Part shown: in pieces, positions 10,732 to 46,924 of the stretch
How positions within the stretch are numbered: the first letter of the stretch is position 1
How the letters are laid out: every line of letters starts with the position of its first letter
Assembly: GCA_041562555.1 (NCBI GenBank)
Contig: JBFEXS010000002.1
Span: 1 to 64,000 of the forward strand
Length of the DNA stretch: 64,000 nucleotides
DNA from: Sulfurimonadaceae bacterium
GTDB taxonomy: Bacteria; Campylobacterota; Campylobacteria; Campylobacterales; Sulfurimonadaceae
Direction of reading: 5' to 3'
Notes under the pieces: generated by a model
Database searches by the model: none
Seen by the model: the letters and a program-made list of their open reading frames with translations, nothing else
What the model was told of the DNA's origin: nothing
Position numbers and translations under genes: made by a program

Positions 10732-11743
10732 GCTCAAAGGCTACCTACTTTCAAACTTTTCACAGATCTACTTCTCGATCTTTTTGCCCTTATATGTTAT
10801 CGCTTCGGTAATTATGTTGATCAAGATTGCCGCTTTTACCTCGGTGATCCAACTGAATCTTTTTGAGATGATCAAGCTGTATCTCTTCATGCTTCCTGAG
10901 CTGCTGTTTTATACCTTGCCGATCACGTTTTTCATCTCAGCCGTTATGACGGTGGCCAAACTCTCTTTTGATTATGAGATGATTGTCATATTCTCATTAG
11001 GGGTCAAACCCTCCAGTGTCCTTCGTTTTTTTACCAAGCTTGCACTCTATCAGACAGGGCTGCTTGTTCTCCTGTTTTTTGTCGTGGCGCCACATACGAA
11101 GAATCTCTATAAGAACTTTCTCAAGGTAAAAACAACTGAAGCCAAATTCAATATCGAAGCGTCTGAATATGGCCATAAATTTGGAGACTGGCTGATCTTT
11201 GTCGGACAAGATCATGAGGACGGCCACTTCTCCGATGTCATCTTATTCAATCGTCAAAAAGAGCAAGAGACACTTATCGTCGCTAAAGATGCTGACATTG
11301 TCAGTAAAAAAGGCGTTTTGAAGCTTCAGCTTGAAGTTGGAAAAGGGTTTGAGTATAGTCAAGACTCCTTATCCCAGATGTCTTATCGAAAAATGTATAT
11401 CAACGACACCAGTGTTGCTGATACCAGTGAATATAAAAGCACACTGCAGTATTGGCTAAACCCTGAGAAGCGAGACAAGATGATACGTAAGTTTACCATC
11501 AACATGCTTGTCGCACTTTTTCCGCTGTTGAGTATTTTACTTGTACCTACCATAGGGATAATTAATGCAAGGCATCAAAAAGGTTATACCTATGCCTATA
11601 TCTTCGCGAGCGTACTTCTGTATTACGGAGGTACCTTTGCCCTGGCCAAACCTCTTGGTCTCTATACCATCGCCTTGATAGCGACAGTTACACTGGGTAT
11701 CGTCAGTTATCTATATTATCATAAAGTGGTCAAACGTTACTGA
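10724..11743 (+). CDS. LptF/LptG-family LPS export permease
   Basis: Three transmembrane helices, a soluble beta-rich domain, then three more helices; LPELLFYTLPI and LSFDYEMIVIFSLGV pattern. Confidence 0.85.
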   Translation: MDKLKGYLLSNFSQIYFSIFLPLYVIASVIMLIKIAAFTSVIQLNLFEMIKLYLFMLPELLFYTLPITFFISAVMTVAKLSFDYEMIVIFSLGVKPSSVLRFFTKLALYQTGLLVLLFFVVAPHTKNLYKNFLKVKTTEAKFNIEASEYGHKFGDWLIFVGQDHEDGHFSDVILFNRQKEQETLIVAKDADIVSKKGVLKLQLEVGKGFEYSQDSLSQMSYRKMYINDTSVADTSEYKSTLQYWLNPEKRDKMIRKFTINMLVALFPLLSILLVPTIGIINARHQKGYTYAYIFASVLLYYGGTFALAKPLGLYTIALIATVTLGIVSYLYYHKVVKRY

Positions 11744-29758: not shown

Positions 29759-30967
29759 ATGCGCTGGTCTGTTAAAAAAATCTTTGACAATATCTCCAAG
29801 ACTTCTCTTTTTCTAACTGTATTACTTGGGCTTTTAGCCGCTATTATCTTCACGCTCAACTCATCTGTTGAAAAAACCGATCTTTTATTACACCAAAAGG
29901 CACTTATCAAAGAAGCCTACAACCTAGGTCGTGAAGACATACAGTTAAGCAATATTCAGCTTAAAGGGATTATGAACAATATCAAGCATGATATCACTAA
30001 AATGAAGGATGCTTACACTTTCGATCTTCTCGGTGCATTTTTACTCGGTCACACCAAGGAATATGTTAATGACCTTGAACAACTAAGCATCAAACAACTT
30101 CTCTATATTGAAGCTGCCTATGCCTATTATGACCAGAGTCTGGAGAACCTTCCGATGCGTCTGGATGATTATGACTTTGCTCAGGCTGAATATGAGGCGA
30201 AGATTTTTGAGCTTGAAGAGAAGCACCTTATATACGAATCCCAGAAGTTCAATATTTATCAATATATCGTCTATCTTGCCTTTTTGGTCTCACTCATGTC
30301 AACCCTCTGGTTCACACGCAGACTCTCTTTTATCTATAAAGACCTGCGCACACTTTATTCCGTTGATGAGAATGGTAAAAGCCGTATGTTCTTGACAGAA
30401 GAAGCTGAGATGATCACTAAACGTATGTCCCGCAAACCTACAGCGACAGAAAACCCTGCTTTTATTGATCCGGTAACTGAGGTCAATAACTATAAAGGAC
30501 TTTTACATGGATTTGCAAACCGCAAAGGCAATAACGGTGCTTCCCTAACCGTTTGTGTTTTTGCTATCGACAACTTCAAAGAGCTCGAGAAAAAATATAA
30601 AAAAGACCTTACGAACCAGATCCTTAAGAAGATTGCCTTTATGTTCTCACTATATGAACAACATACGGATGTATTGGGTCGTATTGACTATGACCAGTTT
30701 GTTCTTGTACTCAATAGAGCCACAAAGGATGCTGCACTTAACGATTGTGAACAGCTGAGAAAAAGTATTGAAGAAGCTAAGTTCAAGGCACCAAAGGGTG
30801 AAAGTATCAGTGTCACTGTCAGTGGTGGTTTCGTTGTCAAAACACCGAATAAGCAACTTGACCAGACTATTGCCCATGCAAAAGAAGTGCTGGTTGCAGC
30901 CATCAAACAAGGTGGTAACAAAATCGCGCAACTGCGTGACAGTTCGGACAAACAACTCCGAGTCTGA
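29759..30967 (+). CDS. Two-TM sensor protein with a degenerate GGDEF domain
   Basis: TM, helical periplasmic domain, TM, then a GGDEF fold (IDPVTEVNN, IDNFKEL, VTVSGG) whose signature reads RIDYDQF. Confidence 0.85.
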   Translation: MRWSVKKIFDNISKTSLFLTVLLGLLAAIIFTLNSSVEKTDLLLHQKALIKEAYNLGREDIQLSNIQLKGIMNNIKHDITKMKDAYTFDLLGAFLLGHTKEYVNDLEQLSIKQLLYIEAAYAYYDQSLENLPMRLDDYDFAQAEYEAKIFELEEKHLIYESQKFNIYQYIVYLAFLVSLMSTLWFTRRLSFIYKDLRTLYSVDENGKSRMFLTEEAEMITKRMSRKPTATENPAFIDPVTEVNNYKGLLHGFANRKGNNGASLTVCVFAIDNFKELEKKYKKDLTNQILKKIAFMFSLYEQHTDVLGRIDYDQFVLVLNRATKDAALNDCEQLRKSIEEAKFKAPKGESISVTVSGGFVVKTPNKQLDQTIAHAKEVLVAAIKQGGNKIAQLRDSSDKQLRV

Positions 30968-31122
30968 TTCTTCCCCGGTAGCTGCTACACATCGTAGCAA
31001 GCCCAAACCATCCCTGCTTCAAAGCGTAACATCACCGCTTTTACCTTCAGAACCAGGTCGCTTTAACCTTCTACAAGTATTTACAAGATATAATCGTGAA
31101 AAATATTTTCGGAGGATTGCGA

Positions 31123-32835
31123 ATGAGTATTCCTATTTATACTTATGATGCCATTGTTGTCGGTGCTGGTCTTGCAGGCTGTGCCGCAGCATTAGAGCTG
31201 GAAAAAGCTGGCAAAAAAGTCGCTGTAATTACAAAACTACACCCTTTACGTTCACACTCAGGTGCAGCGCAAGGTGGGATCAATGCTGCCTTTAGTGATG
31301 CAGACAGTGTTGACCTACATGAATTTGACACAGTGAAGGGAGCAGACTATCTTGCTGATCAAGATTGTGTTGAGTTTATGTGTCAAAAAGCTCCGGAGAC
31401 TATCCGTTGGGCTGAACGCATGGGTGCAGCTTTTTCTCGTACAGAAGATGGGAAGATCGCACAAAGACCTTTTGGTGGTCAATCATCTCCACGTGCTTGT
31501 TTTGCAAAAGACCGTACCGGTCTTACTCTTTTACAAACTATTTATGAGCAAGCACACCGTTATGGTGTAACCTTCTTTGATGAATGGTATGCAGCTGACT
31601 TACTCTATGAAAACGGTAAAGTATACGGAGTTGCTGCTTTTGATATCCGCAATTCAGAAAAAGCAATCTTCAACGCAAAAACAGTCATGTTCGCTACTGG
31701 TGGATATGCACGCTCTTTCAAAATCAACTCCAACGCACACGCAAATACAGGTGATGGACTTTCTCTTGTTGCTCGTCATGGTCTTCCACTTGAAGATATG
31801 GAATTTGTACAGTTCCACCCGTCAGGTCTTTCAGGGAACGGTGTTCTTATTTCTGAAGCGGCACGTGGTGAAGGTGGACGCCTTCTTAACTCTGAGGGTG
31901 AGCGTTTTATGGAAAAATATGCGCCTAACGCTATGGAACTTGCTTCCCGCGATGTTGTTGCCCGTGCTATTATCCAGGAGATTCGTGAAGGACGTGGAGT
32001 CGGTCCTCGTAAAGATGCGGTTTACATTGACCTAGTACACCTTGGCAAAGACCTTATTATGGAAAGACTTCCGGAACTCCGTGATCTTGCGATCACATTC
32101 TTGGGTCTTGATATGATCAAAGAGCCTATTTTGATCTCTGCAACGGCACACTACTCAATGGGTGGTATACCATGTGATGTCAAAGGACATGTACGCAAAA
32201 ACAATGACGAGTTTGTAGAAGGCTTCTACGCTGCCGGTGAATGTGCTTGTGTATCTGTACACGGGGCAAACCGCCTAGGTGCCAATTCTGTTCTTGAAGC
32301 ACTTCTGTTTGGCCGATTCGTCGGTAAGACAATGGTTGAAGAAGTTGACAGCATTGAACTACGCAAAGCTTCTCAAGACGATGCAAAACGTATGGAAGAA
32401 GAGCTTGAATTCATTCTTACAAACAATGGAACGGAGAAAGTATCAGATCTCAGACATGAACTTCAGCAATCCATGACAGACAATGCAGGTGTTTTCCGTA
32501 CAGAAGAGACACTTGCTACCCAAGTCAATAAAATCAAAGAACTGCGTGAACGTTATAAGAACATCCGAATTGCTGACAAGTCTAAGATATTTAATACAGA
32601 GATGCAAGAAGCGATCGAATTTGGTCATATGCTTGATTACTGTGCATTTATTGTCCAAGCTGCCTTGGCACGTAAAGAGAGCCGTGGTGCTCACTACCGT
32701 GAAGACTACCCGACACGTGATGACGAGAACTTCTTAAAACACACTATGGGATACATGGACAAAGATGGAAACATCAGTCTGGACTATATGGACGTTGTTC
32801 TTGGTAAACATGAGCTTAAAGCTAGAACGTATTAA
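31123..32835 (+). CDS. sdhA: Succinate dehydrogenase/fumarate reductase flavoprotein of a type-E SdhABE complex
   Basis: [16 protein letters not shown] (covalent-FAD His), [28 protein letters not shown] and ESRGAH. ATG at 31123 follows a GGAGG RBS; TATAAT at about 31089. Confidence 0.93.
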
Positions 32836-32844
32836 GGAGAAAAG

Positions 32845-33825
32845 ATGAGTGTAATTCCAACGAAAAAAATCACCTTCAAAATGTTCCGCTTTAACAGCGA
32901 AACAGACTATCTGCCGACATACATCGATTATGATGTAGATGTAACACACGAGAACGTCATCCTTGATATTCTTACCCATATCAAGAATGAGGTTGATGGA
33001 ACGCTATCTTACCGCCGTTCTTGCCGTCATGGTATCTGTGGTATCTGTTCTGTCAAAGTCAATGGAAAAGCAATCCTTGCATGTAAAGAGAATGTACTTC
33101 AACTGGTTAAAACTTACGGGACAACATTAACGATTGAGCCATTAAGCATCAAACGCGCGATGAAAGACCTTATCATCGATAAAGAGGACTTCTGGGTCAA
33201 ACACGATCAAGTCAAACCTTACCTTATCTCCGACGTTGAAGAACATCCTGAACACGAACATATCGTCACACCGGCAGAAGCAGAAGAACTTCTTGAAGCT
33301 GACTACTGTATTCAATGTGGTGCATGTCACTATTCGTGTCCTTCCCTTGAAATAAACGATGCCTTCATCGGGCCTGCAGCTTTTGCAAAGGCGTATCGTT
33401 TTGAAGCAGATGTACGTGACGATGCTCACCGCGAGCGTCTTGATGTTATCAATGCGGAAGGGCAAGGTGTTTGGGACTGTGTCAAATGTATGGAATGTGC
33501 GGAAGTTTGTCCAAAAGACGTTAATCCGATCGAGAAGATTACTAAGCTACACAACATGGTCTTTACAGAGGGTAAACCACTTAACAACATCGCGACACGC
33601 CATGCTGTTTACTTTAAAGACTCTATTGCGAAGCACGGTCAGTTGAATGAAGCAGGCTTGGTCATATACTCTGAAAAGGGTTACGGTATGTATAAGCACC
33701 TTAAAGTTGGCGCAAAGATGATTGCCAAAGGTAAAGCTCATATCAATCCATTGATTGTTCCAAAATCAGACAAACTAGACGAGATCAAAAAACTAGTTGA
33801 GATCTCTTCTACAGCAAAATTCTAA
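32845..33825 (+). CDS. sdhB: Fe-S subunit of the type-E succinate:quinone oxidoreductase
   Basis: CRHGICGIC..C, CIQCGACHYSCP and CVKCMECAEVCP (four-Cys third motif), plus a C-terminal extension. Confidence 0.92.
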   Translation: MSVIPTKKITFKMFRFNSETDYLPTYIDYDVDVTHENVILDILTHIKNEVDGTLSYRRSCRHGICGICSVKVNGKAILACKENVLQLVKTYGTTLTIEPLSIKRAMKDLIIDKEDFWVKHDQVKPYLISDVEEHPEHEHIVTPAEAEELLEADYCIQCGACHYSCPSLEINDAFIGPAAFAKAYRFEADVRDDAHRERLDVINAEGQGVWDCVKCMECAEVCPKDVNPIEKITKLHNMVFTEGKPLNNIATRHAVYFKDSIAKHGQLNEAGLVIYSEKGYGMYKHLKVGAKMIAKGKAHINPLIVPKSDKLDEIKKLVEISSTAKF

Positions 33826-33835
33826 GGAGTACACG

Positions 33836-34714
33836 ATGTCTACACTTAAATATGCACTATTTACCGGTTGTACAGCACGTCAAAGTACACCTGAACAAAT
33901 GATGTCTACTATGGCTATCGCCAATAAAATGGGGATCGAGTTGGAGATCCTTGAAGAGGCTACCTGTTGTGGTGCTTCTCACCTTCAAGATTATGATGAG
34001 TTCTTATCATTAGTTCTTAATGCACGTAATATCTGTTATGCAGAGTCACGTGGTATGACAATGGTCACGATCTGTAATACCTGTCAGTTGAACACAATGC
34101 TGACAAAGCGCCGTCTTGACAATGATCCTGAGATGAAAGCAAAAGTAAATGAGAAGCTTGCAGAAGTCGGTCTGGAGTACAAGGGTACTTCCGAGATCAA
34201 ACACTTCTTGTATGCCATCATTGATGACTTCGGTCTTGACAAGCTTAAGTCTATGGTAGTTAAACCGCTTGCAGAGTTCAACATCGCACCGTTCTACGGT
34301 TGTCACAACATTCGTCCTTCCGAGACGCATGAAGATTCAAACGGACATGAGAACGCTTATGCACCGACCTCGCTTGATGATCTTATCCTGGCATGTGGCG
34401 GTAACAACGTCGATTATGATGAAAAGAATAAATGCTGTGGTTTCCATGCAGAACTTCAAGCACCGCATACAGCAGCCACACTGACAGGTAATGCTCTGAT
34501 GGGTGCAATGGACAACAATGCAGACTGGATGGTAACACCATGTCCACTCTGTCACCTGAAGCTGGATACACAGTACGAGCACGCTTCTAAAGCTGTCGGT
34601 CGTGACGTAAAGCTTCCGGTTTTACACATGCAACAGATGATCGGTCTTGCTTTCGGAATTGATGGCAAAGAACTTGGTCTTCAACACCACGTATCCGAAG
34701 TAAACTTCGTATAA
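33836..34714 (+). CDS. sdhE: HdrB-like CCG-domain subunit SdhE
   Basis: Two CCG domains (FTGC..TCCG..CNTC and FYGC..KCCG..CPLC). ATG at 33836 follows an AAGGAG RBS. Confidence 0.88.
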   Translation: MSTLKYALFTGCTARQSTPEQMMSTMAIANKMGIELEILEEATCCGASHLQDYDEFLSLVLNARNICYAESRGMTMVTICNTCQLNTMLTKRRLDNDPEMKAKVNEKLAEVGLEYKGTSEIKHFLYAIIDDFGLDKLKSMVVKPLAEFNIAPFYGCHNIRPSETHEDSNGHENAYAPTSLDDLILACGGNNVDYDEKNKCCGFHAELQAPHTAATLTGNALMGAMDNNADWMVTPCPLCHLKLDTQYEHASKAVGRDVKLPVLHMQQMIGLAFGIDGKELGLQHHVSEVNFV

Positions 34715-34998: not shown

Positions 34999-37900
34999 AT
35001 GAAAATCACTCCTAACGAATTTAAAGACGCCAAGTCACTGGCCTCACAATGGCAAGAGTCCATCTCTAAAAACCGTGAACCCGAAGAGAAAAAGTTTCAC
35101 GAGATGATGGTCAATATGCTCAAAGACCCTCTAAATAAAGTCTTTCTTATCGAACTTCTTGATCAAAGTTTCAGATCACAAAACCCTGAGCGCATTGCAA
35201 AACAGATCGAATATGTATTTGAGCAGTATGAAGACACGAGTATTTTCTCTGACTTTGAAGCACTACTTATCGCCCTCTTTCGTTCTGTGGGCATGTGGTT
35301 TCCGAGACTTTCGATCCCTATGTTTATCAACTACCTGCGAAATGATATCAGCCGTATCGTCATCAAGGGCGAATCAAAAGCCCTAACGGATCATCTGCAG
35401 ATGCGCCGCAATGAGGGAACCCGGGTCAATATCAATCTTATCGGTGAAGCCGTCTTAGGCGAAAAAGAGGCACGCGAACGCATTGAAAAGTATAAGGATG
35501 CCTTGAGTAACCCTAATATCGACTATATCTCGATAAAAATATCCACTATATTCTCACAGATAAACCCTCTGGCCCATGAGTGGAGTGTCGAACAATTAAA
35601 AGCACGACTGAGTGAGATCTATCAAGCAGCGATGAAATACCCTTTCACAGATACACAAGGATATACCCAAGCAAAGTTTGTCAATCTGGATATGGAAGAA
35701 TATCGTGACCTTCATCTTACTCTCGACGCCTTTAAAACGACACTTGAACAAGATGAGTTTAAAAACTTTCATGCAGGTATCGTTCTTCAAACCTATCTTC
35801 CAGACACACTAAAAGAACTAAAATCCCTTGCACAGTGGGCAAAAGACAGGGTTCACAGTGGAGGTGCACCGATCAAAGTGCGTCTTGTCAAAGGTGCCAA
35901 CCAGGAGATGGAACTTACCGAGGCAAGCTTGCGTCATTGGGAATGTGTAACCTACCTAAAGAAAGAGTATAGTGATGCCAATTATAAGATTTGTATGGAC
36001 TTTTTACTTGATCCCGAAGTTGCGCCCTATGTGCACATCGGTATAGCATCCCATAACCTTTTTGATCATGCCCTTGCCAATATTCTGGCCAGCTCTCGTC
36101 AAGTAGAACAGTATTATACTGCTGAGATGCTTGAAGGCATGAGTGAGACAGCCTATAAACTTCTCAAGTCAAAGGGTATCAATGTTATCCTCTATGCCCC
36201 AATCGCAACGGCGAAAACCTTTACCAACGCTATCGCCTATTTAGTCCGCCGCTTTGATGAAAACACAGCAGATCAGAACTTCTTACGCTACAGTTTTGGA
36301 CTTCAAATGAGATCGCCTGAATGGGAAAAGCTCCTGCAGAGCTATGACAAGTCTATAGAGGCCATCCCCTTCACATCCCAGATGCCCTTTAGAACACAAG
36401 ATCGCAATCAGTCGCCTCATCCATGTACAACAAAAGTTGAGGACTACCGCTTCAAAAACGTAGCGGACACAGATTTTTCGCTTTCGCAAAACAGGGTCTG
36501 GGCCGTAAAAATACGTGATAAATGGCAAAACATATCTAAAGAAGGAGGATTTCATGCCATGCCTGTCGTCGATGGCAAGCCACTTCCGAAGAAAAGTCCT
36601 CTCCGTGTTATAGACAAGTCCCAATACCATCAAGAGATCACCGTAGGCTCTTACACGAATGCAGATGCCTCAGATCTGCTCAAAGCGGTTGAAGTCGCGG
36701 CGCTTGATCCTGATGGCTGGAGAGAGAAAAGTCTTTCGCAGCGCCAGGAAATTTTAATGCAGGTAGGTGTAGAACTTGAAAGACGACGCGGTGATCTTAT
36801 CGGTGTCGCTGCTGCCGAAGTCGGAAAGGTCTTCACTGAAACAGATGTAGAAGTCAGTGAAGCGATCGATTTTTGTAATTTTTACCCTTACAGTGTACGT
36901 CAGATCAATAGCTATACCGGCATTCATACCCGTGGCAAAGGTGTCGGTCTTGTCGTCTCCCCCTGGAACTTCCCCGTAGCCATTCCGACCGGAGGTGTTG
37001 CCGCAAGTCTTGCTGCAGGAAACACCGTACTTATCAAACCTGCTTCAAACGCCGTACTTTGTGCCTATATGATGTGTGAATGTTTTTGGGCGGCAGGTGT
37101 CAGTAAAAGGACGCTGCAATTTATACCTACTCCGGGCAAACTGGCCGGTGAAATACTCATTCCAAACAAAAAAATTGACTTCGTCATCTTTACCGGAGGT
37201 GAGCAGACCGCCTATGATATGCTCAAAGTCAAACCCGATCTACATTTAAGTGCTGAGACCGGGGGAAAAGATGCCACCATAGTCACCTCTCTGGCGGACC
37301 GGGATCAAGCGATCAAGAATGTTGTCGCTTCTGCGTTTAATAACTCCGGGCAAAAATGTTCCGCCACTTCTTTGCTTATCCTCGAAAAAGAACTGTATGA
37401 AGACAATGCTTTCATGAACAACCTTGTTGATGTGGCATCTTCCCTGGAAGTCGGTTCTGTATGGGACTTTAAAAACCGCATAGGTGCACTCTCGGATCTG
37501 CCGCAAGGAAACCTGAACAAAGCCCTGCACCACCTCGATCCAAAAGAGAGATGGGCACTTCAGCCTTCCTATGCAGACCGTGATAATCCATATATGCTAA
37601 GACCTTCTATCCGGTATGGAACCCAAGCCGGCGATTTTTGCCATATGCATGAGCTCTTTGGTCCCGTACTAAGCGTAATGAAGGCAGATTCCCTGGACGA
37701 AGGGATCGAGCTTGTCAATGCTACCGGCTATGGGCTTACCTCCGGTATAGAGTCTCTGGACAGAAGAGAACAGGAGTTCTGGAAAGAGAGACTTAAAGCA
37801 GGAAATCTTTATATCAACCGTATGACGACCGGTGCCATTGTATTACGTCAACCCTTTGGCGGTATGGGAAAATCGGCCATAGGTAGCGGGCGTAAAGCAG

Positions 37901-38586
37901 GCGGTCTGAATTATGTTGCCCAGTTCATGGACATAGGTTCGACCGGTGCACTCTTACTCAAAAGTGCAAAGCATATTCAGGTCGACCGACTTGCTGCCCT
38001 TTTGGATGGTGAACGTTTTTTTACACAAACGCTAAATGATGCCATACGGATTGCATCACACTTTGCCTCGTTTTTATATGATGAGTTTCTTCAAGAACAT
38101 GATTATGTCAATGTACGGGGCGAGAGCAATGTTATTCGCTATCTTCCAATGAAAAGCGTACTCCTTCGTCTTGAAGAGAGCGATGATCTGGTCGAGATGC
38201 TTGTGAGTATTTCGGCTATCAAAATGAGCGGTGCCAAGCTCATCCTCTCACTGCCTTCTCTCTTGAGCAATGAACATAGTCTATGGCTGTATGACAAAGC
38301 ATCGATGCTTTTGGATGCCCAGGACGAAGTCTATACAGAAGACCTCGGGCAGATGCTTGAACATATACCAAGAGTAGAACGGTTACGGTTTTTAAACAAA
38401 TCTACCTGTAGTCCCTCAGTCTATGCACATGCCCGTCAGCATGGCGTACATATAGCTACCGAGTCCTTCATATCCCATGGTCGTATAGAACTGATGCATT
38501 ATTTTTACGAGCAGAGTGTTTCAAACTCCTATCATCGCTATGGAAACTTGGGACGCAAAGGTCTATCTTACAAGGAAAACACATGA
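34999..38586 (+). CDS. putA: Bifunctional proline dehydrogenase / P5C dehydrogenase
   Basis: PRODH motifs NLDMEEY, RLVKGAN, ASHN and YLVRRFDEN. ALDH motifs EAIDF, SPWNFP, ETGGKD, GQKCSA, ELFGP and QPFGG. Confidence 0.95.
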   Translation: MKITPNEFKDAKSLASQWQESISKNREPEEKKFHEMMVNMLKDPLNKVFLIELLDQSFRSQNPERIAKQIEYVFEQYEDTSIFSDFEALLIALFRSVGMWFPRLSIPMFINYLRNDISRIVIKGESKALTDHLQMRRNEGTRVNINLIGEAVLGEKEARERIEKYKDALSNPNIDYISIKISTIFSQINPLAHEWSVEQLKARLSEIYQAAMKYPFTDTQGYTQAKFVNLDMEEYRDLHLTLDAFKTTLEQDEFKNFHAGIVLQTYLPDTLKELKSLAQWAKDRVHSGGAPIKVRLVKGANQEMELTEASLRHWECVTYLKKEYSDANYKICMDFLLDPEVAPYVHIGIASHNLFDHALANILASSRQVEQYYTAEMLEGMSETAYKLLKSKGINVILYAPIATAKTFTNAIAYLVRRFDENTADQNFLRYSFGLQMRSPEWEKLLQSYDKSIEAIPFTSQMPFRTQDRNQSPHPCTTKVEDYRFKNVADTDFSLSQNRVWAVKIRDKWQNISKEGGFHAMPVVDGKPLPKKSPLRVIDKSQYHQEITVGSYTNADASDLLKAVEVAALDPDGWREKSLSQRQEILMQVGVELERRRGDLIGVAAAEVGKVFTETDVEVSEAIDFCNFYPYSVRQINSYTGIHTRGKGVGLVVSPWNFPVAIPTGGVAASLAAGNTVLIKPASNAVLCAYMMCECFWAAGVSKRTLQFIPTPGKLAGEILIPNKKIDFVIFTGGEQTAYDMLKVKPDLHLSAETGGKDATIVTSLADRDQAIKNVVASAFNNSGQKCSATSLLILEKELYEDNAFMNNLVDVASSLEVGSVWDFKNRIGALSDLPQGNLNKALHHLDPKERWALQPSYADRDNPYMLRPSIRYGTQAGDFCHMHELFGPVLSVMKADSLDEGIELVNATGYGLTSGIESLDRREQEFWKERLKAGNLYINRMTTGAIVLRQPFGGMGKSAIGSGRKAGGLNYVAQFMDIGSTGALLLKSAKHIQVDRLAALLDGERFFTQTLNDAIRIASHFASFLYDEFLQEHDYVNVRGESNVIRYLPMKSVLLRLEESDDLVEMLVSISAIKMSGAKLILSLPSLLSNEHSLWLYDKASMLLDAQDEVYTEDLGQMLEHIPRVERLRFLNKSTCSPSVYAHARQHGVHIATESFISHGRIELMHYFYEQSVSNSYHRYGNLGRKGLSYKENT

Positions 38587-40076
38587 TGCAGACACCTACC
38601 CTTATCTCATTTCTTATCTATATGTTTGGCATGATTGCTATTGGTATCTATTTTTACTTCAAAACCAATGATCTAAGTGATTATGTACTCGGAGGCAGAG
38701 GACTAGGCCCCAGTGTGACTGCACTGAGTGCCGGTGCTTCCGATATGAGCGGATGGCTTTTACTGGGGCTTCCGGGGATGATGTATAGTGATGGTATCGT
38801 AGGCTCCTGGATCGGTATCGGTCTAGTGATTGGAGCCTATATTAACTGGCATTATGTGGCAAGGCCCCTGCGTGTCTTTACCCACCGATTGAACGATGCC
38901 ATTACCATACCCGATTATTTTTCAAACCGCTTTGAAGACAGTGGAAACCTTCTACGCGTTGTCACTGCCATCGTCATCTTGCTCTTTTATACCCTGTATA
39001 CCTCTTCCGGACTGGTCGGCGGTGCCAAGCTGTTTGAAGCCACTTTTGGACTTGACTACTCAACTGCCTTGATGATAGGAAGTTTCATCATAGTCTCGTA
39101 CACTTTTTTGGGTGGGTACAATGCCGTTAGCTGGACCGATTTTTTTCAAGGTATCCTCATGATGCTTGCCTTGATCATCACCCCTATTGTCGTTCTTTAT
39201 GACATAGGTGGTATCAATAAGGGAATTGAGATCATCGCATCCATAGATGCGACAAGACTTGATATGTTCAAGGGGACATCTTTGATCGGCATCATTTCTC
39301 TTATGGCCTGGGGGCTTGGGTATTTTGGACAGCCCCATATACTAGTAAGGTTCATGTCTATCCGTCATGAAGATGAACTACATCGTGCAAAGCATATCGG
39401 AATGAGCTGGATGATTCTTTCGCTTATAGGTTCATTGGCCGTCGGCTTTTTCGGCTTTGTGTATGTTATAGCAAACGGTGTCGATCTGCAGGATAATGAG
39501 AAGATATTTATCATCCTCTCCCAATTGGTCTTCAACCCGTGGATTGCCGGTTTTTTGCTGGCAGCTATATTAGCGGCCATTATGAGTACCATCGATTCAC
39601 AACTTCTTGTTTCATCTTCTGTATTGACCCGTGACATCTATCATGCACTTATACGTAAGGATGCGAGCAATAGGGAGCTTGTGTGGGTAGGTCGAGTCAC
39701 GGTCATTATCATCGCGATAATTGCATGGTATATCTCGACAGATAAAGACTCCAAAGTACTTGACCTTGTAGCCTATGCATGGGCAGGATTCGGTGCATCT
39801 TTCGGTCCCCTTGTCATTCTCTCCTTATATAACAGGAACATCACCAAATATGGTGCTATTGCAGGGATGATTGTCGGTGCTCTTACCGTAATTATATGGA
39901 AGCAGCTCCAAGGCGGTATATTCGAACTTTATGAGCTCCTTCCGGGGTTTATCGCAGCATGGATAGCCATTCTTCTGTTTAGCCCATTTGGTAAGCAAAT
40001 GACATCAGCTTCACAGCAGATGTTTGATGAAGCACACCGCACACTCAATCAAAAAACATTAAAAGGAAATCAATGA
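38583..40076 (+). CDS. putP: Sodium/proline symporter
   Basis: DYVLGGR, ALSAGASDMSGWLLLGLPG, WGLGYFGQPHILVRFM and AIMSTIDSQLLV. Confidence 0.95.
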   Translation: MMQTPTLISFLIYMFGMIAIGIYFYFKTNDLSDYVLGGRGLGPSVTALSAGASDMSGWLLLGLPGMMYSDGIVGSWIGIGLVIGAYINWHYVARPLRVFTHRLNDAITIPDYFSNRFEDSGNLLRVVTAIVILLFYTLYTSSGLVGGAKLFEATFGLDYSTALMIGSFIIVSYTFLGGYNAVSWTDFFQGILMMLALIITPIVVLYDIGGINKGIEIIASIDATRLDMFKGTSLIGIISLMAWGLGYFGQPHILVRFMSIRHEDELHRAKHIGMSWMILSLIGSLAVGFFGFVYVIANGVDLQDNEKIFIILSQLVFNPWIAGFLLAAILAAIMSTIDSQLLVSSSVLTRDIYHALIRKDASNRELVWVGRVTVIIIAIIAWYISTDKDSKVLDLVAYAWAGFGASFGPLVILSLYNRNITKYGAIAGMIVGALTVIIWKQLQGGIFELYELLPGFIAAWIAILLFSPFGKQMTSASQQMFDEAHRTLNQKTLKGNQ

Positions 40077-40834
40077 AACGACTTGTTATAAAAGTTGGTA
40101 GTGCCGTTTTAACGGAAGAGAATCATATTGCAAAAGAACGCATGCTCAACCTAGTCTCTCTTGTTGCTGCACTGCAAGGAGTATATGACGTTATACTCGT
40201 CACATCAGGTGCCGTAGCAGCAGGATATTCTGCCCTCAAACTTGATAAGAAAAAGCAGATCGGGAAAAAAGCACTGGCAGCTGCTGGTCAGCCTATACTC
40301 ATGACTGCCTACAAAAAGAAGTTTGATATCTATGATATTGACACCGCACAGATACTACTGACAGAAGACGATTTTGATTCACGTAAACGTACCCGGATGT
40401 TTCAAGAGATCATCGATGCCCATTTGGAAAACGACATCCTTCCTATCATCAATGAGAACGATATAACATCCACGCCGGAGCAACTTTTTGGAGACAACGA
40501 CCAACTCTCTGCGAATGTAGCTTACGCGACCGATGCTGAGCTTCTTGTCATTCTCAGTGATATCGATGGGTATTATGACAAAAACCCTCAAGAGCATGCC
40601 GATGCAAAGCTCTATAAAATAGTCAACCACTTACCACAAGAAGCACTGGAAGATGTCTCAACAGCCAATAATGATTTTGCGACAGGTGGAATCGTCACAA
40701 AACTCATTGCAGCAGATTATCTTATCAAGCGTAACCGAAAGATGTTTTTATGTAATGGCTTTGATCTCAGTGCGGCTGAATCTTTTTTGCTAAAGGGGGA
40801 ACATACCCTTGGAACACTCTTTGAGCCTTTATAA
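40073..40834 (+). CDS. proB: Glutamate 5-kinase (short form without PUA domain)
   Basis: VIKVGSA, VTSGAVAAG, AAGQ, PIINEND, FGDNDQLSA and TGGIVTK. Confidence 0.92.
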   Translation: MKRLVIKVGSAVLTEENHIAKERMLNLVSLVAALQGVYDVILVTSGAVAAGYSALKLDKKKQIGKKALAAAGQPILMTAYKKKFDIYDIDTAQILLTEDDFDSRKRTRMFQEIIDAHLENDILPIINENDITSTPEQLFGDNDQLSANVAYATDAELLVILSDIDGYYDKNPQEHADAKLYKIVNHLPQEALEDVSTANNDFATGGIVTKLIAADYLIKRNRKMFLCNGFDLSAAESFLLKGEHTLGTLFEPL

Positions 40835-40925
40835 GCAGATATAAAGTCTTAGTGTAACCCTAGATGTATGAATTAGCTTTACCAGTCTAGAGATGATTTA
40901 AATCTATCCTTGTACAATCGCGTTC

Positions 40926-42365
40926 ATGAATTTAGACGCGCTGCAACTCGACACACCTTATCTCTGCCTTGATCAAGAGTTTTATGATGTATGTGATCCT
41001 ATTCCTCTCGATCAACCCTATCTTGTCAGCTTCAACCCTAAGGCAGCCCAACTCATCGGGCTTGATATAGACACGCATCAAGACCCTGCTCTCATAGAGC
41101 TTTTCAACGGTACCCACCTCCCCAAGGGTGCCAAACACTTTAGTATGTGCTATGCAGGGCATCAGTTCGGTAACTATAATCCGCGTCTGGGTGACGGCCG
41201 AGCACACAACCTCGGTAAAATAAAAGGCTGGAATCTTCAGCTCAAAGGAAGTGGAGAAACACTATATTCCCGTATGGCTGACGGAAGGGCTGTATTACGG
41301 TCTTCCATTCGTGAATACCTCATGAGTGAAGCGATGTACCACCTTGGCATTCCGACGACACGTGCCTTGGGTATCATCGGTTCACAAAGCAAGGTCCTGC
41401 GAAATGACATGGAGCGTGCTGCTATTGTCATGCGTATGTCCAGCAGTTGGATACGTTTTGGTTCTTTTGAATATTTCTACTATACCAAGTCCTATGATAA
41501 ACTAGAAGCACTTGCTGAGTATGTTATACAGGAATCCTTTCCCCATCTGACAGATGATGAAGACCGGTTTTTCAAAATGTTTTGCGAGACCCTTGAGCGT
41601 ACGGCGAAGTTGATTGCCCAATGGCAAGGGGTAGGCTTCTGCCATGGTGTGATGAACACCGACAATATGTCCATAGAGGGACTGACGATCGATTATGGTC
41701 CCTTTGCCATGATGGATGATTTCAACTATGGCTACGTCTGTAATCATACCGATAAGGCAGGACGTTACAGCTACGGAGAACAACCCAATGTCTCCTACTG
41801 GAACCTGACCATGTTGGCCAAGGCGCTCTCTCCTATCATAGAGCACAAACGCATGCAGCAAAAGCTAAACGAATTTGGTGCCTTTATCTATCCCGATGCC
41901 TACATCGATGTAATGCGTAATAAGCTGGGGCTTGAGATCGAACATGAAGAGGATGTAGAACTGATCAAAGAACTTATAGGGATATTGCAAGATGTCTGTG
42001 TCGACCACACCCTCTTCTTTCGTACTTTAAGCCGTTACGATACAGACAAGAGTGAGATGTATGATATTGTGATGGAGCCGGTAATCTTGGACAAGTGGCT
42101 TCAGCTTTACGACAAGCGGTTAAGCCTTGAAACACGTTCGCATACGCAGCGCCAGGAGTCTATGTTGAAGATAAATCCCAAATATGTACTTAAAAACCAT
42201 ATGCTCCAAAAGGCTATTGTCTTAGCAGAGAAAGGTGACTTTTCTATGGTCGAGACACTGTTGTATATTGCTTCTCATCCCTACGACGAGTTGCCCGAAT
42301 ATGAACATTTTTCCCAAGACACCCCGGAAGAGTTTAAAAACCTTGGGCTTTCGTGTTCTTCCTAA
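40926..42365 (+). CDS. selO: Protein adenylyltransferase SelO/YdiU
   Basis: YAGHQFG, LGDGRA, QLKGSG, DGRAVLRSSIREY, HGVMNTDNMS and TIDYGP; ends in SCSS (Cys form). Confidence 0.94.
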   Translation: MNLDALQLDTPYLCLDQEFYDVCDPIPLDQPYLVSFNPKAAQLIGLDIDTHQDPALIELFNGTHLPKGAKHFSMCYAGHQFGNYNPRLGDGRAHNLGKIKGWNLQLKGSGETLYSRMADGRAVLRSSIREYLMSEAMYHLGIPTTRALGIIGSQSKVLRNDMERAAIVMRMSSSWIRFGSFEYFYYTKSYDKLEALAEYVIQESFPHLTDDEDRFFKMFCETLERTAKLIAQWQGVGFCHGVMNTDNMSIEGLTIDYGPFAMMDDFNYGYVCNHTDKAGRYSYGEQPNVSYWNLTMLAKALSPIIEHKRMQQKLNEFGAFIYPDAYIDVMRNKLGLEIEHEEDVELIKELIGILQDVCVDHTLFFRTLSRYDTDKSEMYDIVMEPVILDKWLQLYDKRLSLETRSHTQRQESMLKINPKYVLKNHMLQKAIVLAEKGDFSMVETLLYIASHPYDELPEYEHFSQDTPEEFKNLGLSCSS

Positions 42366-42421
42366 AGCCTGATAAAGTCAATCTAGACTATAGTTTCATA
42401 CCACATCATAAAGGATGACTC

Positions 42422-42874
42422 ATGCTAGAAGTGGCGGATATCAGTGATATAGAGCTCAAACAGCGATGGAGGCTTTATTGGATCCAATCAGTATTTGAAT
42501 TTTCCAACCTGAGGCTTCAACGTATGTCCTGGATCGAGGCTTCTGAAGTGTCCTGGCCCGATGAGCCTTGGGAATCTTCCTTTGAAGCATGTAATGACGC
42601 CTACTTCGAGAGTCTGGACCTGTATGATCAGTATGAAAAGGCCGTTGAAAGAACCTACGTAACTCCAGATGAGGCTGAACATGCCAAAAGCTTTCACCAA
42701 CTCGCTCTGGCCTACATAGAGCCAGATGATGATCCGGTACTGATATTAGGCGATGAAACATGGCTTGAAGTCGTAGAAGCAGCTAAAGAGTTTTGGGAAT
42801 ATCTAAAAACGCATGTAGATGCGCCAAGGGAAAAAGAACTCATCAAGAAACTTGAAAACGAGTTTCCCTTATAA
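42422..42874 (+). CDS. Acidic, Trp-rich hypothetical protein
   Basis: AAGGA RBS and a 150-aa ORF. The pattern Q-x3-W...IL-x-D-x-x-W-x-x-V-x3-A is reminiscent of SCO4402-like proteins (recalled, unverified). Confidence 0.75.
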   Translation: MLEVADISDIELKQRWRLYWIQSVFEFSNLRLQRMSWIEASEVSWPDEPWESSFEACNDAYFESLDLYDQYEKAVERTYVTPDEAEHAKSFHQLALAYIEPDDDPVLILGDETWLEVVEAAKEFWEYLKTHVDAPREKELIKKLENEFPL

Positions 42875-42876
42875 GT

Positions 42877-43989
42877 CTATAAGAATGAGATGGCCACCTT
42901 ATGCTCGTCAAACCCAAGCTTGGCACTGTCTTTTTCGCCTTTTAGAAGTTGCGTAAACTGTTCTTGAGAAACAACACTCATTCCCAGTTCTCTACCGACA
43001 AGCTTTTCCATCTTTGATTGGTTTTTATCAAAGAAATTTTTCGTTTTCTCATTTTTAACCAGTAAAAAATCGGCATTATTGTCTTTTGCTTCGACAAGGA
43101 TATCCCCTGCAATCTTCAATGAAAAGCTCTCGTCTATCAATGCAGAATTGGGAGCCAAATCTTCTCGACGTGAGTTTAAAGAGATATAGTTTGCCTGTGA
43201 GTCGTATACCAAAGACTCCAATTCGCTCCCCTCTACACCATCATAGGAAGCGATATTAAAGTCCTTGAAGAGTTGTGCAACACTTGGTTTTATTCCACTG
43301 TCCATATTCTCTTCAAAGCCGGAGATATCTGTCTTATCCAGGAATGCAGCTACACGTTTAGCCAACTTTGTCCTTGGCTTGATATATTCGAGTGCAAGAT
43401 AGATCAATTTTTGGATCTTATTTTCTTCCTCGCTACGCCCTAGCCGCTTTTCCAGTGAAGTGTGATACCAAATACCATTTACTTCACTGATAAGCAGGTC
43501 TAAAATCTCATTTCTGAGTTCAAATTTCTGTTCAATCAAGTCTGCAGCAATGATCAGAACATGATCGCCAATATAATCTCGATTGTAGTTTAAAGTGTTG
43601 GATGCATAATAGGCAAGCTCTGTACTCTTTCTATAAGCTATATTTTTTTCTGCGTCTATATATTTATCAATCAATGAAAGTTTTTCTATGAAATCCGATC
43701 GATCAATCTTCAAATCCTCTTGCGCTCTCAACTCACTGATAGGATCGATTCTTAGATCCATTCCATATTGAGCCACCATATCACGCACCAAGGTACGTGC
43801 ATTCACATAAGAGCTGTTCACCTTAACATTCATATTGTCATCAAAACCAAAAGCATCTATGGCGTTAATCGTATGCAAAAGGTCATTGATACTTTGCGTT
43901 GCATCATATGCAAGTGTATACTTTTTGTAATATGGAAGGTAGTCTGTGCGTGCATTGAATCTAAAGAGTTCTATATTAATCTTGTTCAT
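42877..43989 (-). CDS. Cysteine-free fusion of SdhB-like and SdhE/HdrB-C-terminal-like domains (possibly the DUF5644-type family)
   Basis: Colinear similarity to the SdhB and SdhE in this window (see findings). No Cys in 370 aa. Has its own TATAAT at 44023-44028 on the minus strand. Confidence 0.85.
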   Translation of the reverse strand: MNKINIELFRFNARTDYLPYYKKYTLAYDATQSINDLLHTINAIDAFGFDDNMNVKVNSSYVNARTLVRDMVAQYGMDLRIDPISELRAQEDLKIDRSDFIEKLSLIDKYIDAEKNIAYRKSTELAYYASNTLNYNRDYIGDHVLIIAADLIEQKFELRNEILDLLISEVNGIWYHTSLEKRLGRSEEENKIQKLIYLALEYIKPRTKLAKRVAAFLDKTDISGFEENMDSGIKPSVAQLFKDFNIASYDGVEGSELESLVYDSQANYISLNSRREDLAPNSALIDESFSLKIAGDILVEAKDNNADFLLVKNEKTKNFFDKNQSKMEKLVGRELGMSVVSQEQFTQLLKGEKDSAKLGFDEHKVAISFL

Positions 43990-44066
43990 CTATAATCTGT
44001 CCCTAACATCTAAAATTGCATCATTATAATATAAAATTTTAAAATAGGTGAATATTCAAAAAGGAG

Positions 44067-44177: not shown

Positions 44178-44924
44178 TTATTTGTCTTTCATCATTACCA
44201 TCTTACGACGTAAATAGGCGATCTTGGATTGCAAAGGAAGATCCTTCGGACAGACATCCTCACATCCCATTAAAGACATACATCCAAAGACACCATCCTC
44301 ATCTCCGATAAGGTTGTAATAATCTTCATCATTCCGTTTATCCCGTGGATCAATAGCATAACGTGCAATTTTATTCAGCCCCACAGCCCCTACAAAGTTC
44401 TCGCGCATCACCACTGTCCCGCATCCGGCGATACAACAGCCGCACTCGATACAACGGTCAAGTTCATAGATCTCATCCGTCAGATCAGGATCCATCTTTT
44501 CTTCCAATCTGTCTACATTGACTTCCTGATTACCTTGGGCATGTATCCAAGTCTCCAGCCTGTCATTCATTCCGCTCATCCATTCACCCGTATGTACCGA
44601 AAGATCACCGATCAATCTAAACACCGGTAAAGGTGCCAAGGATATCTCCGGATCCATTTTGGATGTCAAAGTACGGCAAGCCAGACCCGGACGGCCGTTG
44701 ATCACCATAGAACATGAACCACAAATACCTGCACGGCAAACAAAATCAAACTTCAAGGAGTTGTCTTGATGTTTGCGTATCTCATTTAATGCGATAAAGA
44801 GTGTCATCCCAGGTGCTTCTTCTACCTCAAAGGTCTGAACCCGCGGTCTATCCCATTTTAATTGGGGGTTATAGCGCAAGATCGATAGTTTTAAGATGCG
44901 TCCTTTTGGTTCACTGTTACTCAT
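44178..44924 (-). CDS. frdB: Fumarate reductase iron-sulfur subunit
   Basis: [20 protein letters not shown] and [12 protein letters not shown] (3Fe-4S type); Wolinella-type sequence. Confidence 0.95.
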
Positions 44925-46924
44925 TTTGATTCTCCTGACAATGGTTCATATAAACGTTCATTCTTGCCTTGATACCGTTTAGGCAGCATTTCTCTAAAAG
45001 GCATCAAAGCTTCTTGTATCGCAAAGCGGTCTTTGCCTTCGGCCTCAAGTTGTTCTCTGATCTTATCCACCTCTTCCTGTCGCTTTGGCGAATCAGGATG
45101 GTGACGGGTCATATCCTTACCATATCCCCTGAATCCAGGCGGAAGTTCCATCTGTGAAATATCGATATCCTCATAAGTCACCGTAGGAAGCATCTGGTTT
45201 TCATCAGGCCACGATGTGATGGTACGATTCAAATACTCCTCATCGTTACGCTCCGGGAAATCCTCTCTGGAATGTGCACCACGACTCTCTTTACGATCAA
45301 GGGCACCCTTCGCTACACACAGTGCAAGTTTCAACATTCTTTGAGTTCGGTAGGCATTGAAAAGCTCAGGGTTAGCCGTCAGTGTTTTACACTTTACCAA
45401 TATGTTTTTGGAACGGATCAGAAGCTGTTCAAGCTCATCTACGGCCTCTTGCAGGTCTTTTCCATTTCTGAAAATCCCAACTTTTTCCATCATAATCTCT
45501 TCCATACGCTCACGCAGCATGAAGGCATCTTCAGGATTTTCTTTCTCTTCAAGTAGGTATTCCAGCTTTGCCTGTTCTTTGTCTAAGAATCCTCTGACCA
45601 ATTGCGTTGAAATATCGATCTCACTCTCTTTAGTGTCACAATAGTCAGAGATATATTCCGCAACAAGCATTCCTGAGACAACGGTTTCAGCCACCGAGTT
45701 CCCTCCTAGACGGTTAAATCCGTGCATATCCCAGCAAGCCGCTTCTCCACAGGAAAAGAGCCCTTTCAGGGTTTGACTCTCTCCCCGATAATCCGTTCGG
45801 ATACCTCCCATGGAATAGTGCTGTGTCGGACGCACAGGGATAGGATCGACCGCAGGATCAATTCCCAGAAAGCTCTCACATATCTCTTTGACCTCACGCA
45901 GGTTCTTTTCGATATGTTCACGCCCCAGGATCGTTATGTCCAACCAGAGATGATCTCCGTATCGGGACTTCACACCCTTTCCTTTTCGCATGTGTTCGAC
46001 CATACGGCGACTTACAACATCACGACTGGCAAGCTCTTTCTTCTCCGGCTCATAGTCTGGCATGAAACGGTATCCGTCCTTATCCAGTAAAAGTCCTCCG
46101 TCGCCGCGGCATCCTTCTGTTGTTAAAATACCGACGGGAACAATTGCTGTCGGATGGAACTGTATTGCTTCCATATTTCCCAAAGTGGCAACACCCGTCT
46201 CTAACGCTATCGCTTGGCCCATACCCTGACAGATGACGGCATTGGTTGAGACCGCATAGATGCGTCCATAGCCGCCCGTAGCTATCACTGTTGCCTTGGA
46301 GACATACGCGACCAGTTCACCGGTCATTAAATTACGGGCAATCGCTCCATAACAGCGTCCATTCTCATGAATGATTGCCATCGCTTCCATACGCTCACGT
46401 ACTTCTATCTTATCCTCATGCGCCTTATTATCCATAGCAAAGAGCATGGAGTGTCCTGTACCATCAGAGGTATAACAGGTACGCCACTTCTTCGTTCCTC
46501 CGAAATCACGGGCAGTGATGAGTCCATGTGCCTCTTCTTTTTCAGTGATGGTCACCTTTTGTGCGTTTATGATGACCTGATGATCTCCTGCACGAACCCG
46601 TGTCCAAGGCACACCCCAGGCAGCAAGTTGCCGGATCGCCTTTGGTGCAGTATTGGTAAACATACGTACTACTTTCTGATCCGCACCCCAGTCACTTCCT
46701 TTGACCGTATCTTCGAAGTGGACATCTTCATTATCACCTTCACCTTTGATCGCATTTCCAAGACTTGCTTACATACCACCTTGAGCAGCTGCCGAATGCG
46801 AACGCTTAGGCGGGACAAGAGACAATAGGATACAGTCATGCCCTCTCTGTTTTACTCCGGTGGCAGCCCTTAGACCTGCGAGACCTCCACCGATCACGAG
46901 TACATCCGTATAGGTAACTTTCAT
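44921..46924 (-). pseudogene. frdA: Fumarate reductase flavoprotein with an in-frame TAA at codon 52 (pseudogene or sequence error)
   Basis: From ATG at 46924: [21 protein letters not shown]...[21 protein letters not shown]..., continuing in frame into the ORF-track 580-aa fragment. The TAA at 46769-46771 replaces the Gln of GGMQASLG. Confidence 0.9.

Follow-up and report, generated by a model that had tools for sequence, protein, structure and literature searches.

Type-E succinate dehydrogenase distributes its iron-sulfur (Fe-S) clusters over two separate chains, the iron-sulfur subunit SdhB and the CCG-domain (HdrB-like) subunit SdhE. In thiol:fumarate reductase subunit B (TfrB) of methanogens, the nearest known architecture, an FrdB-like and an HdrB-like part are joined in a single chain; TfrB is a catalytic subunit and binds clusters. 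The gene described here shares with type-E SdhB and SdhE the parent folds, the order SdhB then SdhE and a series of non-ligand motifs, but its product is one chain rather than two, lies far below the family cut-offs and, in contrast to TfrB as well, has no Fe-S ligands. It occupies positions 42877..43989 (reverse strand, ATG start, stop codon included) of a 64,000-nucleotide stretch from a Sulfurimonadaceae bacterium (contig JBFEXS010000002.1; hereafter the window) and encodes a DUF5644-family protein of 370 amino acids (aa). The frame is intact and its translation contains no cysteine among the 370 residues, as an earlier preliminary description had stated. We conclude that the protein arose when the sdhB-sdhE pair of the cytoplasmic type-E succinate dehydrogenase was duplicated and the two genes were fused to one chain, and that the first CCG half was lost in its lineage. 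It is probably a helper of succinate dehydrogenase.

Both parental relationships are visible in pairwise alignments. The closest paralogue of the N-terminal two thirds is the type-E SdhB of the window (326 aa; 32845..33825, forward strand), and BLASTP aligns residues 3-217 of the target with SdhB residues 8-257 at 28% identity (E=4e-17). Inside this alignment lie the target/SdhB motif pairs LFRFNARTDYLPYY/MFRFNSETDYLPTY, YGMDLRIDPISELRAQEDLKIDRSDF/YGTTLTIEPLSIKRAMKDLIIDKEDF, NRDYIG/NDAFIG and NGIW/QGVW, together with the shared VKVN. The closest paralogue of the C-terminal third is the CCG-domain subunit SdhE (33797..34714, forward strand), for which orthologues suggest a start at 33836 rather than at the TTG at 33797; here, target residues 166-370 align with SdhE residues 89-305 (E=1e-9), and the alignment includes FNIASYDG/FNIAPFYG, AKDNNADF/AMDNNADW, KLVGRE/KAVGRD and LGFDEHKVAISFL/LGLQHHVSEVNFV. 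When a 32-sequence alignment of the target family (A1) was compared by hhalign with 19 SdhB and 19 SdhE sequences, the probabilities were 99.6% (E=1.5e-23) and 98.4% (E=7.1e-15), respectively. The SdhB-like part precedes the SdhE-like part, colinear with the gene order sdhB-sdhE. The alignments contain no target counterpart of the first CCG domain of SdhE, nor of the C-terminal extension of type-E SdhB (residues about 258-326). The preliminary description had proposed a colinear likeness to SdhB followed by likeness to the second CCG domain of SdhE, and had read the protein as a duplicated, fused and cluster-free paralogue; every motif pair it quoted is present, and BLASTP, hhalign and the predicted fold agree with its reading. 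The adjacent FrdB was considered as an alternative parent and ruled out (BLASTP against the FrdB of the window, E=0.35), and the similarity is specific to the type-E paralogue.

Library models recognise the protein at scores below their thresholds. HdrB-like_C (PF22196) matches residues 285-364 (E=1.8e-7, 31.5 bits, cut-off 33.4) and Fer2_3 residues 6-101 (E=0.0023, 18.4 bits, cut-off 27), while the CCG family (PF02754) gave no match in the Pfam scan. The NCBIfam models for FrdB/SdhB return E-values of 5.9e-9 and 3.8e-6, all under their cut-offs, and the protein reaches 26.5 of the 88 bits set for TIGR00384 and 35.7 of the 333 bits set for PRK12385. The TfrB model (NF004898, 488 model positions) aligns with residues 2-121 only, at E=0.0093 and 14.6 bits against a cut-off of 385.

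Ligand positions were read from the hhalign and BLASTP alignments, which cover 17 of them, 12 in SdhB and five in SdhE. Cys60 and Cys65 of SdhB fall inside an eight-residue deletion that shortens the [2Fe-2S] loop of the target, and Cys68 and Cys80 correspond to Met53 and Ala64. In the helical domain, Cys155, Cys158, Cys161 and Cys165 are replaced by Arg120, Thr123, Ala126 and Ser130, and Cys212, Cys215, Cys218 and Cys222 by Tyr175/His176, Ser178, Lys181 and Arg185. Cys156, Cys200, Cys201, Cys236 and Cys239 of SdhE align with Val252, Asp277, Leu278, Asn313 and Thr316. The two CXnCCGXmCXXC motifs of a CCG protein are thus both missing, the second domain having its ligands replaced and the first domain being absent. 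All 17 aligned positions are gone, which bears out the claim that every Fe-S ligand motif had been deleted or replaced. Because no ligand is left for the three SdhB clusters or for the CCG cluster, the protein cannot hold the parental clusters and cannot transfer electrons.

The loss extends across the family. Among the 120 homologues listed, the cysteine count ranges from 0 to 6 and 15 have none; in 80 diverse representatives the most cysteine-rich column holds cysteine in 19. A profile search ranked 144 new cluster representatives above P0265, the first cysteine-rich true SdhB (12 cysteines, E=1.5e-18); three of these have a single CxxC and six a single CC, and none of the 144 has a full Fe-S motif. 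No CxxC occurs in the family copies at the 56 loci described below. Five distant copies (L049, L053-L056) carry a CC in 'GI-CCCEYENN' or a similar sequence at the third SdhB motif position, which may be a relic of the lost SdhB cluster site.

A redox or metal centre built from non-cysteine ligands would place the protein back in electron transfer, and conserved Asp, His, Asn and Ser residues do exist. Public names such as '2Fe-2S iron-sulfur cluster-binding protein' and 'Heterodisulfide reductase, subunit B' point the same way, but they are automatic transfers, probably over-transferred from weak Fer2_3/HdrB matches. What stands in place of the 17 ligands (deletion, M, A, R, T, A, S, Y/H, S, K, R, V, D, L, N, T) forms no plausible metal site, and no cysteine column is conserved in the 80 representatives. 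We regard such a centre as very improbable.

An AlphaFold2 model of the target built on A1 has a predicted local distance difference test score (pLDDT) of 84.9 and a predicted template modelling score (pTM) of 0.73, with the linker at residues 208-232 as the exception. Foldseek ranks 3KWL first in the PDB (E=1.5e-15; template modelling (TM) score 0.70 on the query, 0.54 on the target). FrdB/SdhB chains follow over about 240 columns (E=6.9e-8 to 1e-3, TM score on the target 0.61-0.65), and these matches reveal the two-domain SdhB fold in the model. The HdrB chain 5odc_B is matched at E=5.6e-4 (TM score 0.32-0.40). The protein is therefore predicted to keep the folds of both parental modules; an unrelated fold, which the preliminary description had named as a ground for abandoning its reading, is not what the model gives.

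Four parts can be delimited on the reverse strand. Residues 1-105 (43675..43989) form a beta-grasp domain that corresponds to the [2Fe-2S] domain of SdhB, as indicated by library models, fold and hhalign, and contain the family-wide motif FRFNxxTDYLPYY. Residues 113-203 (43381..43653) form a helical domain, the counterpart of the [4Fe-4S]/[3Fe-4S] domain of SdhB (BLASTP, fold and hhalign), in which YYASNT and YIGDH motifs are conserved and 8/8 ligand positions are replaced. The weakly conserved linker of residues 208-232 (43294..43368), modelled with low confidence, marks the site where longer relatives hold a first CCG-like half. Residues 241-370 (42880..43269) make up an alpha/beta domain that corresponds to the second CCG domain and probably also to the HdrB-like C-terminal domain of SdhE, on the evidence of Pfam, BLASTP, fold and hhalign.

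The protein is a member of DUF5644, a catalogued and functionally uncharacterised family that includes HP0468 of Helicobacter pylori (PDB 3KWL). The expectation of an entity not previously recognised therefore does not hold. A word-indexed search returned 389 homologues with E<=1e-3, the best at 69% identity, and the named ones are 'DUF5644 domain-containing protein', mostly from Sulfurimonas. In an exhaustive profile search, 357 clusters formed at 50% identity reached E<=1e-3, and 95 of them E<=1e-30. The window protein itself carries precomputed assignments to PF18712 (PF18712.8) and PF22196, and its nearest atlas clusters are DUF5644 (score 0.97); PF18712 was not among the matches of our direct Pfam scan at E<=0.01, so that the label rests on the precomputed annotation and the source names. 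3KWL, an H. pylori 'uncharacterized protein' and the nearest solved structure, is matched by phmmer over residues 3-197 (3kwl_A, E=2.1e-11), and BLASTP matches the H. pylori protein P0222 at 7e-15 in the N-terminal and 5e-4 in the C-terminal part. A table of PMC9570263 gives the H. pylori DUF5644 protein as HP0468. HP0468/3KWL is a true homologue by sequence and fold, equally uncharacterised in function, but the SdhE-like part of the Helicobacter form is longer and aligns with the window SdhE from residue 72, where the 370-aa window protein has a mere linker in place of the first CCG half. HP0468 has not been reported beside complex II genes; its neighbourhood was not looked at here.

DUF5644 is spread over several families of Campylobacterota and varies in length. 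Gastric Helicobacter forms have 495-521 aa, and Campylobacter forms about 345 aa; the H. pylori cluster comprises 7233 member sequences. Long full fusions of 482-573 aa are represented by P0210, P0215, P0222, P0241, P0242 and P0253. Stand-alone proteins of about 276 aa align with nearly the whole of SdhE (P0254: 98.2%, profile residues 28-290), and apparent stand-alone pseudo-SdhE proteins of about 252-281 aa are P0245, P0254-P0256, P0260-P0264 and P0268. Family proteins of 210-250 aa match the SdhB-like part only (P0173-P0199). Since such alignments to SdhB and SdhE are seen, the full fusion, its apparent halves and the shortened fusion all occur within the family. Cysteine-poor members bear not only the two public names quoted above but also 'succinate dehydrogenase/fumarate reductase-like Fe-S protein'.

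No cofactor ligand is left, and between the window and its relative L001 the target is 65% identical whereas SdhA, SdhB and SdhE are 90-92% identical. This faster divergence than that of the paralogues could be taken to indicate a decaying pseudogene left over from the sdhB-sdhE duplication. Nei-Gojobori counts over the window gene and nine close orthologues argue otherwise. The proportion of nonsynonymous differences (pN, 0.13-0.34) is lower than that of synonymous differences (pS, 0.62-0.96) in 45/45 pairs; the synonymous rate (dS) is saturated in 37 of these, and in the other 8 the ratio of nonsynonymous to synonymous rates (omega) is 0.08-0.16. The matched frame is uninterrupted at 55/56 loci; the exception, L010, has one stop in its copy at 10001-11128, and contig ends cut three loci. 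A1 contains 37 invariant columns, the family extends over several Campylobacterota families, and the fold is predicted with confidence. Decay is scarcely credible in the face of an omega of about 0.1, and these selection and conservation data rule it out. Purifying selection maintains the gene, which is not in decay, in keeping with the earlier supposition that it is retained.

The genomic setting was compared at 56 loci, one genome per species, with flanks of up to 10 kb, from Sulfurimonadaceae, Arcobacteraceae, Sulfurovum and other Campylobacterales. Type-E sdhA, sdhB or sdhE lies in the examined flanks of 38/56 loci, with the nearest sdh gene less than 3 kb away in 37 and less than 400 bp away in 31. 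At 18 loci, from Arcobacteraceae and Sulfurovum, the homologue is immediately 5' of sdhA on the same strand; at three it is directly downstream of sdhE, at seven divergent from sdhA and at eight convergent with sdhE. The family thus has a conserved genomic association with the complex II genes sdhABE. The preliminary description had placed the gene in one system with sdhABE, frdCAB and selO: the link to sdhABE stands, and the other two fall away, since frd genes are near in only 2/56 loci (L004 and L011) and selO in only 1/56 (L006). A conserved system with frdCAB or selO was rejected on these counts.

In the window itself, sdhABE and the target converge, and 8.1 kb with putA-putP-proB-selO and a 150-aa open reading frame (ORF) separate them. 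This block of putA, putP, a glutamate-5-kinase-like gene, selO and the ORF spans 34999-42874 on the forward strand; in relatives L001, L003, L005, L009, L010, L016 and L017, sdhE and the target homologue are 12-1435 bp apart. The put genes are common to the window, L007 and L020, and selO adjoins the target in L006. The 150-aa ORF (42422-42874, forward strand) ends 2 bp from the target stop codon, tail to tail. No Pfam family matches this ORF, its one NCBIfam hit, to the SCO4402 family, is sub-threshold (E=0.0096), and tblastn found no match to it (E<=1e-10) in the 56 loci. A gene for a GGDEF-domain protein (29759-30967, forward strand, in the window) stands beside sdhA or the target in many Sulfurimonas-type loci (likewise L001, L004, L005, L009-L011, L013, L015-L017, L021, L029, L041 and L052), which hints at a conserved link between cyclic di-GMP (c-di-GMP) signalling and the sdhABE region. 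Consensus scans of three sdhA-target intergenic regions found a terminator-like hairpin in L014 and none in L046 and L030. The hairpin of L014, an Arcobacteraceae locus, has a perfect 12-bp stem at 11071-11098, ahead of sdhA and right behind the DUF5644 gene, and is terminator-like on both strands.

Taken together with the mimicry of the SdhB-SdhE module, this association leads us to favour, tentatively and from comparative sequence data, a protein that acts through protein binding as a complex II accessory, a stand-in for SdhB-SdhE on SdhA. It would copy in one chain a module whose free surfaces, in the real complex, face SdhA and the membrane. Because it reproduces that module, occupancy of the SdhB site would be the simplest model: the protein would sit on the SdhB-binding surface of SdhA (of FrdA in species without sdhABE) while the flavoprotein matures or awaits its oxygen- and iron-dependent Fe-S subunit, and would thus serve as a chaperone or assembly factor. 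The preliminary description had put forward, as candidate roles, a scaffold, an assembly factor or an inhibitor that docks on SdhA/FrdA or the SdhBE oligomer. A possible functional analogue, by hypothesis and in mode of action only, is the assembly factor SdhE/SDHAF2/Sdh5, not to be confused with the CCG-domain subunit of the same name. Passages of PMC5773532 present it as a small non-redox protein at the FrdB/SdhB surface during maturation, which binds FrdA on FrdB's own surface; the same passages report that loss of the Fe-S subunit lowers flavinylation. The target has no Pfam, NCBIfam or PDB (Foldseek) match that relates it to this factor, which PMC5042078 reports as a conserved factor confined to alpha-, beta- and gamma-proteobacteria and eukaryotes. 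A broader proposal, which we consider unlikely though worth stating, is that DUF5644 is a Campylobacterota-wide complex II maturation factor, an Fe-S-free mimic that docks on SdhA (FrdA in Helicobacter). Such a mimic would keep hold of the flavoprotein or shield it, would further the covalent attachment of flavin adenine dinucleotide (FAD) or the hand-over to the real Fe-S subunit, and would fill the role that SdhE/SDHAF2 has in alpha-, beta- and gamma-proteobacteria and mitochondria. A complex prediction for SdhA (A2, 570 aa) with the target (A1), run without controls, gave interaction prediction scores from aligned errors (ipSAE) of 0.01 and 0.05 against a mark of 0.32 and is counted neither way.

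Several observations weigh against a role on SdhA. In complex II structures, the [2Fe-2S] loop lies at the interface between SdhA and SdhB; since it is eight residues shorter in the target, the docking surface may have changed. Paralogues arise adjacent to one another, so that some of the synteny may simply date from that origin without reflecting function. Eighteen of the 56 loci have no sdh gene in the examined flanks; L035, L039, L043 and L044 are the only ones among them whose flanks reach 8 kb or more in both directions. With a terminator-like hairpin in one of the three intergenic regions scanned, co-transcription with sdhA is not established. H. pylori, which keeps DUF5644, is not known to have sdhABE, so that the role would not be strictly specific to SdhABE. 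In Sulfolobus tokodaii, the type-E SdhA is reported to attach its FAD covalently by autocatalysis (PMC9557727), and in Wolinella a single Ala-to-His change is enough for covalent FAD according to part of PMC2680327; both lessen the need for a dedicated flavinylation factor.

The loci that lack sdhABE nearby, together with the Helicobacter members, could instead reflect neofunctionalisation, in which the SdhB/SdhE scaffold was recruited for a job outside complex II, for instance to bind some other partner or a small molecule, and adjacency to sdhABE is mostly a leftover of tandem duplication. The family has invariant polar residues of its own at or near former ligand sites, namely S130-N131 (for Cys-Pro), D142-H143, R182, D277 (for the first Cys of CCG), D303, D307, R333 and H363. 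Its faster evolution than that of the real subunits fits a new function as well, and the part of PMC6090961 that concerns HP0468 describes it only as a hypothetical protein, a hit in a genome-wide association study that is up-regulated by H2. The adjacency, however, survives four rearrangements in several families, which is more than inertia predicts. No other recurrent partner emerged from a Pfam scan of 43 flanking ORFs in 14 sdh-less loci; the neighbours there are heterogeneous (peroxidase, solute-binding protein, MoaA-like protein, 5-enolpyruvylshikimate-3-phosphate (EPSP) synthase, SelA/SelB, DEAD helicase and others). The conserved residues also speak to this point. Those kept in at least 80% of 80 diverse members are F9, F11, D16, Y17, L18, Y20, L38, N58, I81, P83, D92, L93, D99, F100, Y128, S130, G141, A148, G172, L195, A301, D303, A306, L309 and R333. 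Many of these, among them F9, F11, D16, Y17, L18, P83, D92, L93 and F100, are conserved in true SdhB too, which suggests that a structural or interface role was retained rather than a new pocket formed. Recruitment to a different job is the main rival, though we hold it somewhat less likely than an accessory role.

The mimicry and synteny that suggest an accessory would suit a regulatory decoy equally. The protein would then compete with SdhB-SdhE for SdhA, or with SdhA for SdhB-SdhE, and switch off or redirect succinate/fumarate turnover, for instance between the oxidative and reductive directions of the tricarboxylic acid (TCA) cycle in these autotrophs. In the window the gene has a promoter-like site of its own, TTCACC-18-TATAAT at 44023..44052 on the reverse strand, 33 nucleotides upstream of the ATG; although it is a consensus match only, it fits the earlier claim of a separate -10 element. 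At 15/56 loci the gene is divergent from or convergent with sdhABE and may be separately regulated, and a passage of PMC5773532 reports that the assembly factor SdhE inhibits catalysis by free FrdA or SdhA while bound. The 18 loci at which the homologue lies directly upstream of sdhA on the same strand suggest co-expression rather than antagonism. The present data do not separate a decoy from a chaperone, and we judge antagonism quite unlikely.

The presumed functional partner of the target in the window is the sdhABE operon (31096-34714). Its first gene, sdhA, encodes a type-E, non-exported flavoprotein (31123..32835, forward strand, identified by library models); the ORF can also be read from a GTG at 31096, and the ATG at 31123 is the probable start. 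SdhA scores above the cut-off for the 'sdhA_forward' model, while the methylmenaquinol:fumarate reductase model matches from position 46 only and far under its cut-off. The covalent-FAD histidine is invariant in 24/24 aligned SdhA sequences, that of the window included. The operon is accordingly predicted to encode a cytoplasmic, histidine-type enzyme that lacks a twin-arginine translocation (Tat) extension, a different form from the periplasmic methylmenaquinol:fumarate reductase of Wolinella and Campylobacter jejuni. Part of PMC2680327 describes the exported enzyme of Wolinella and Campylobacter as lacking the covalent-FAD histidine. On the other side of the target, frdA (44921-46924, reverse strand) contains an in-frame TAA at 46769-46771, codon 52, just past the covalent-FAD motif; L004 and L011 have Gln at this position. 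The TAA is either a nonsense mutation, which would make frdA a pseudogene in an otherwise intact-looking frdCAB, or a sequencing error.

The family is already catalogued, and the part that appears new is its link to sdhABE and the reading of its members as pseudo-subunits. In a literature search that left subscription journals and supplements outside its scope, DUF5644 appeared as a table entry, 3KWL as list entries and HP0468 in papers with nothing functional on it, and we found in print neither a description of DUF5644 as a cluster-free SdhB-SdhE fusion nor its position beside cytoplasmic type-E sdhABE; the same search yielded no paper on SdhE flavinylation in epsilonproteobacteria. How the flavoprotein of complex II matures in bacteria without SdhE/SDHAF2 is an open question, for which the target, a conserved copy of the Fe-S and anchor subunits that has shed every cluster and whose family stays beside sdhABE across a phylum, is a concrete candidate. 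If its role on complex II is true, it would provide a clean example of a redox subunit turned pseudo-subunit and a function for the structural-genomics orphan 3KWL/HP0468, which is conserved in gastric Helicobacter. Database names such as '2Fe-2S cluster-binding' and 'heterodisulfide reductase subunit B' on cysteine-free proteins would be corrected. Even without any connection to complex II, the protein would remain a well-defined example of a reused scaffold.

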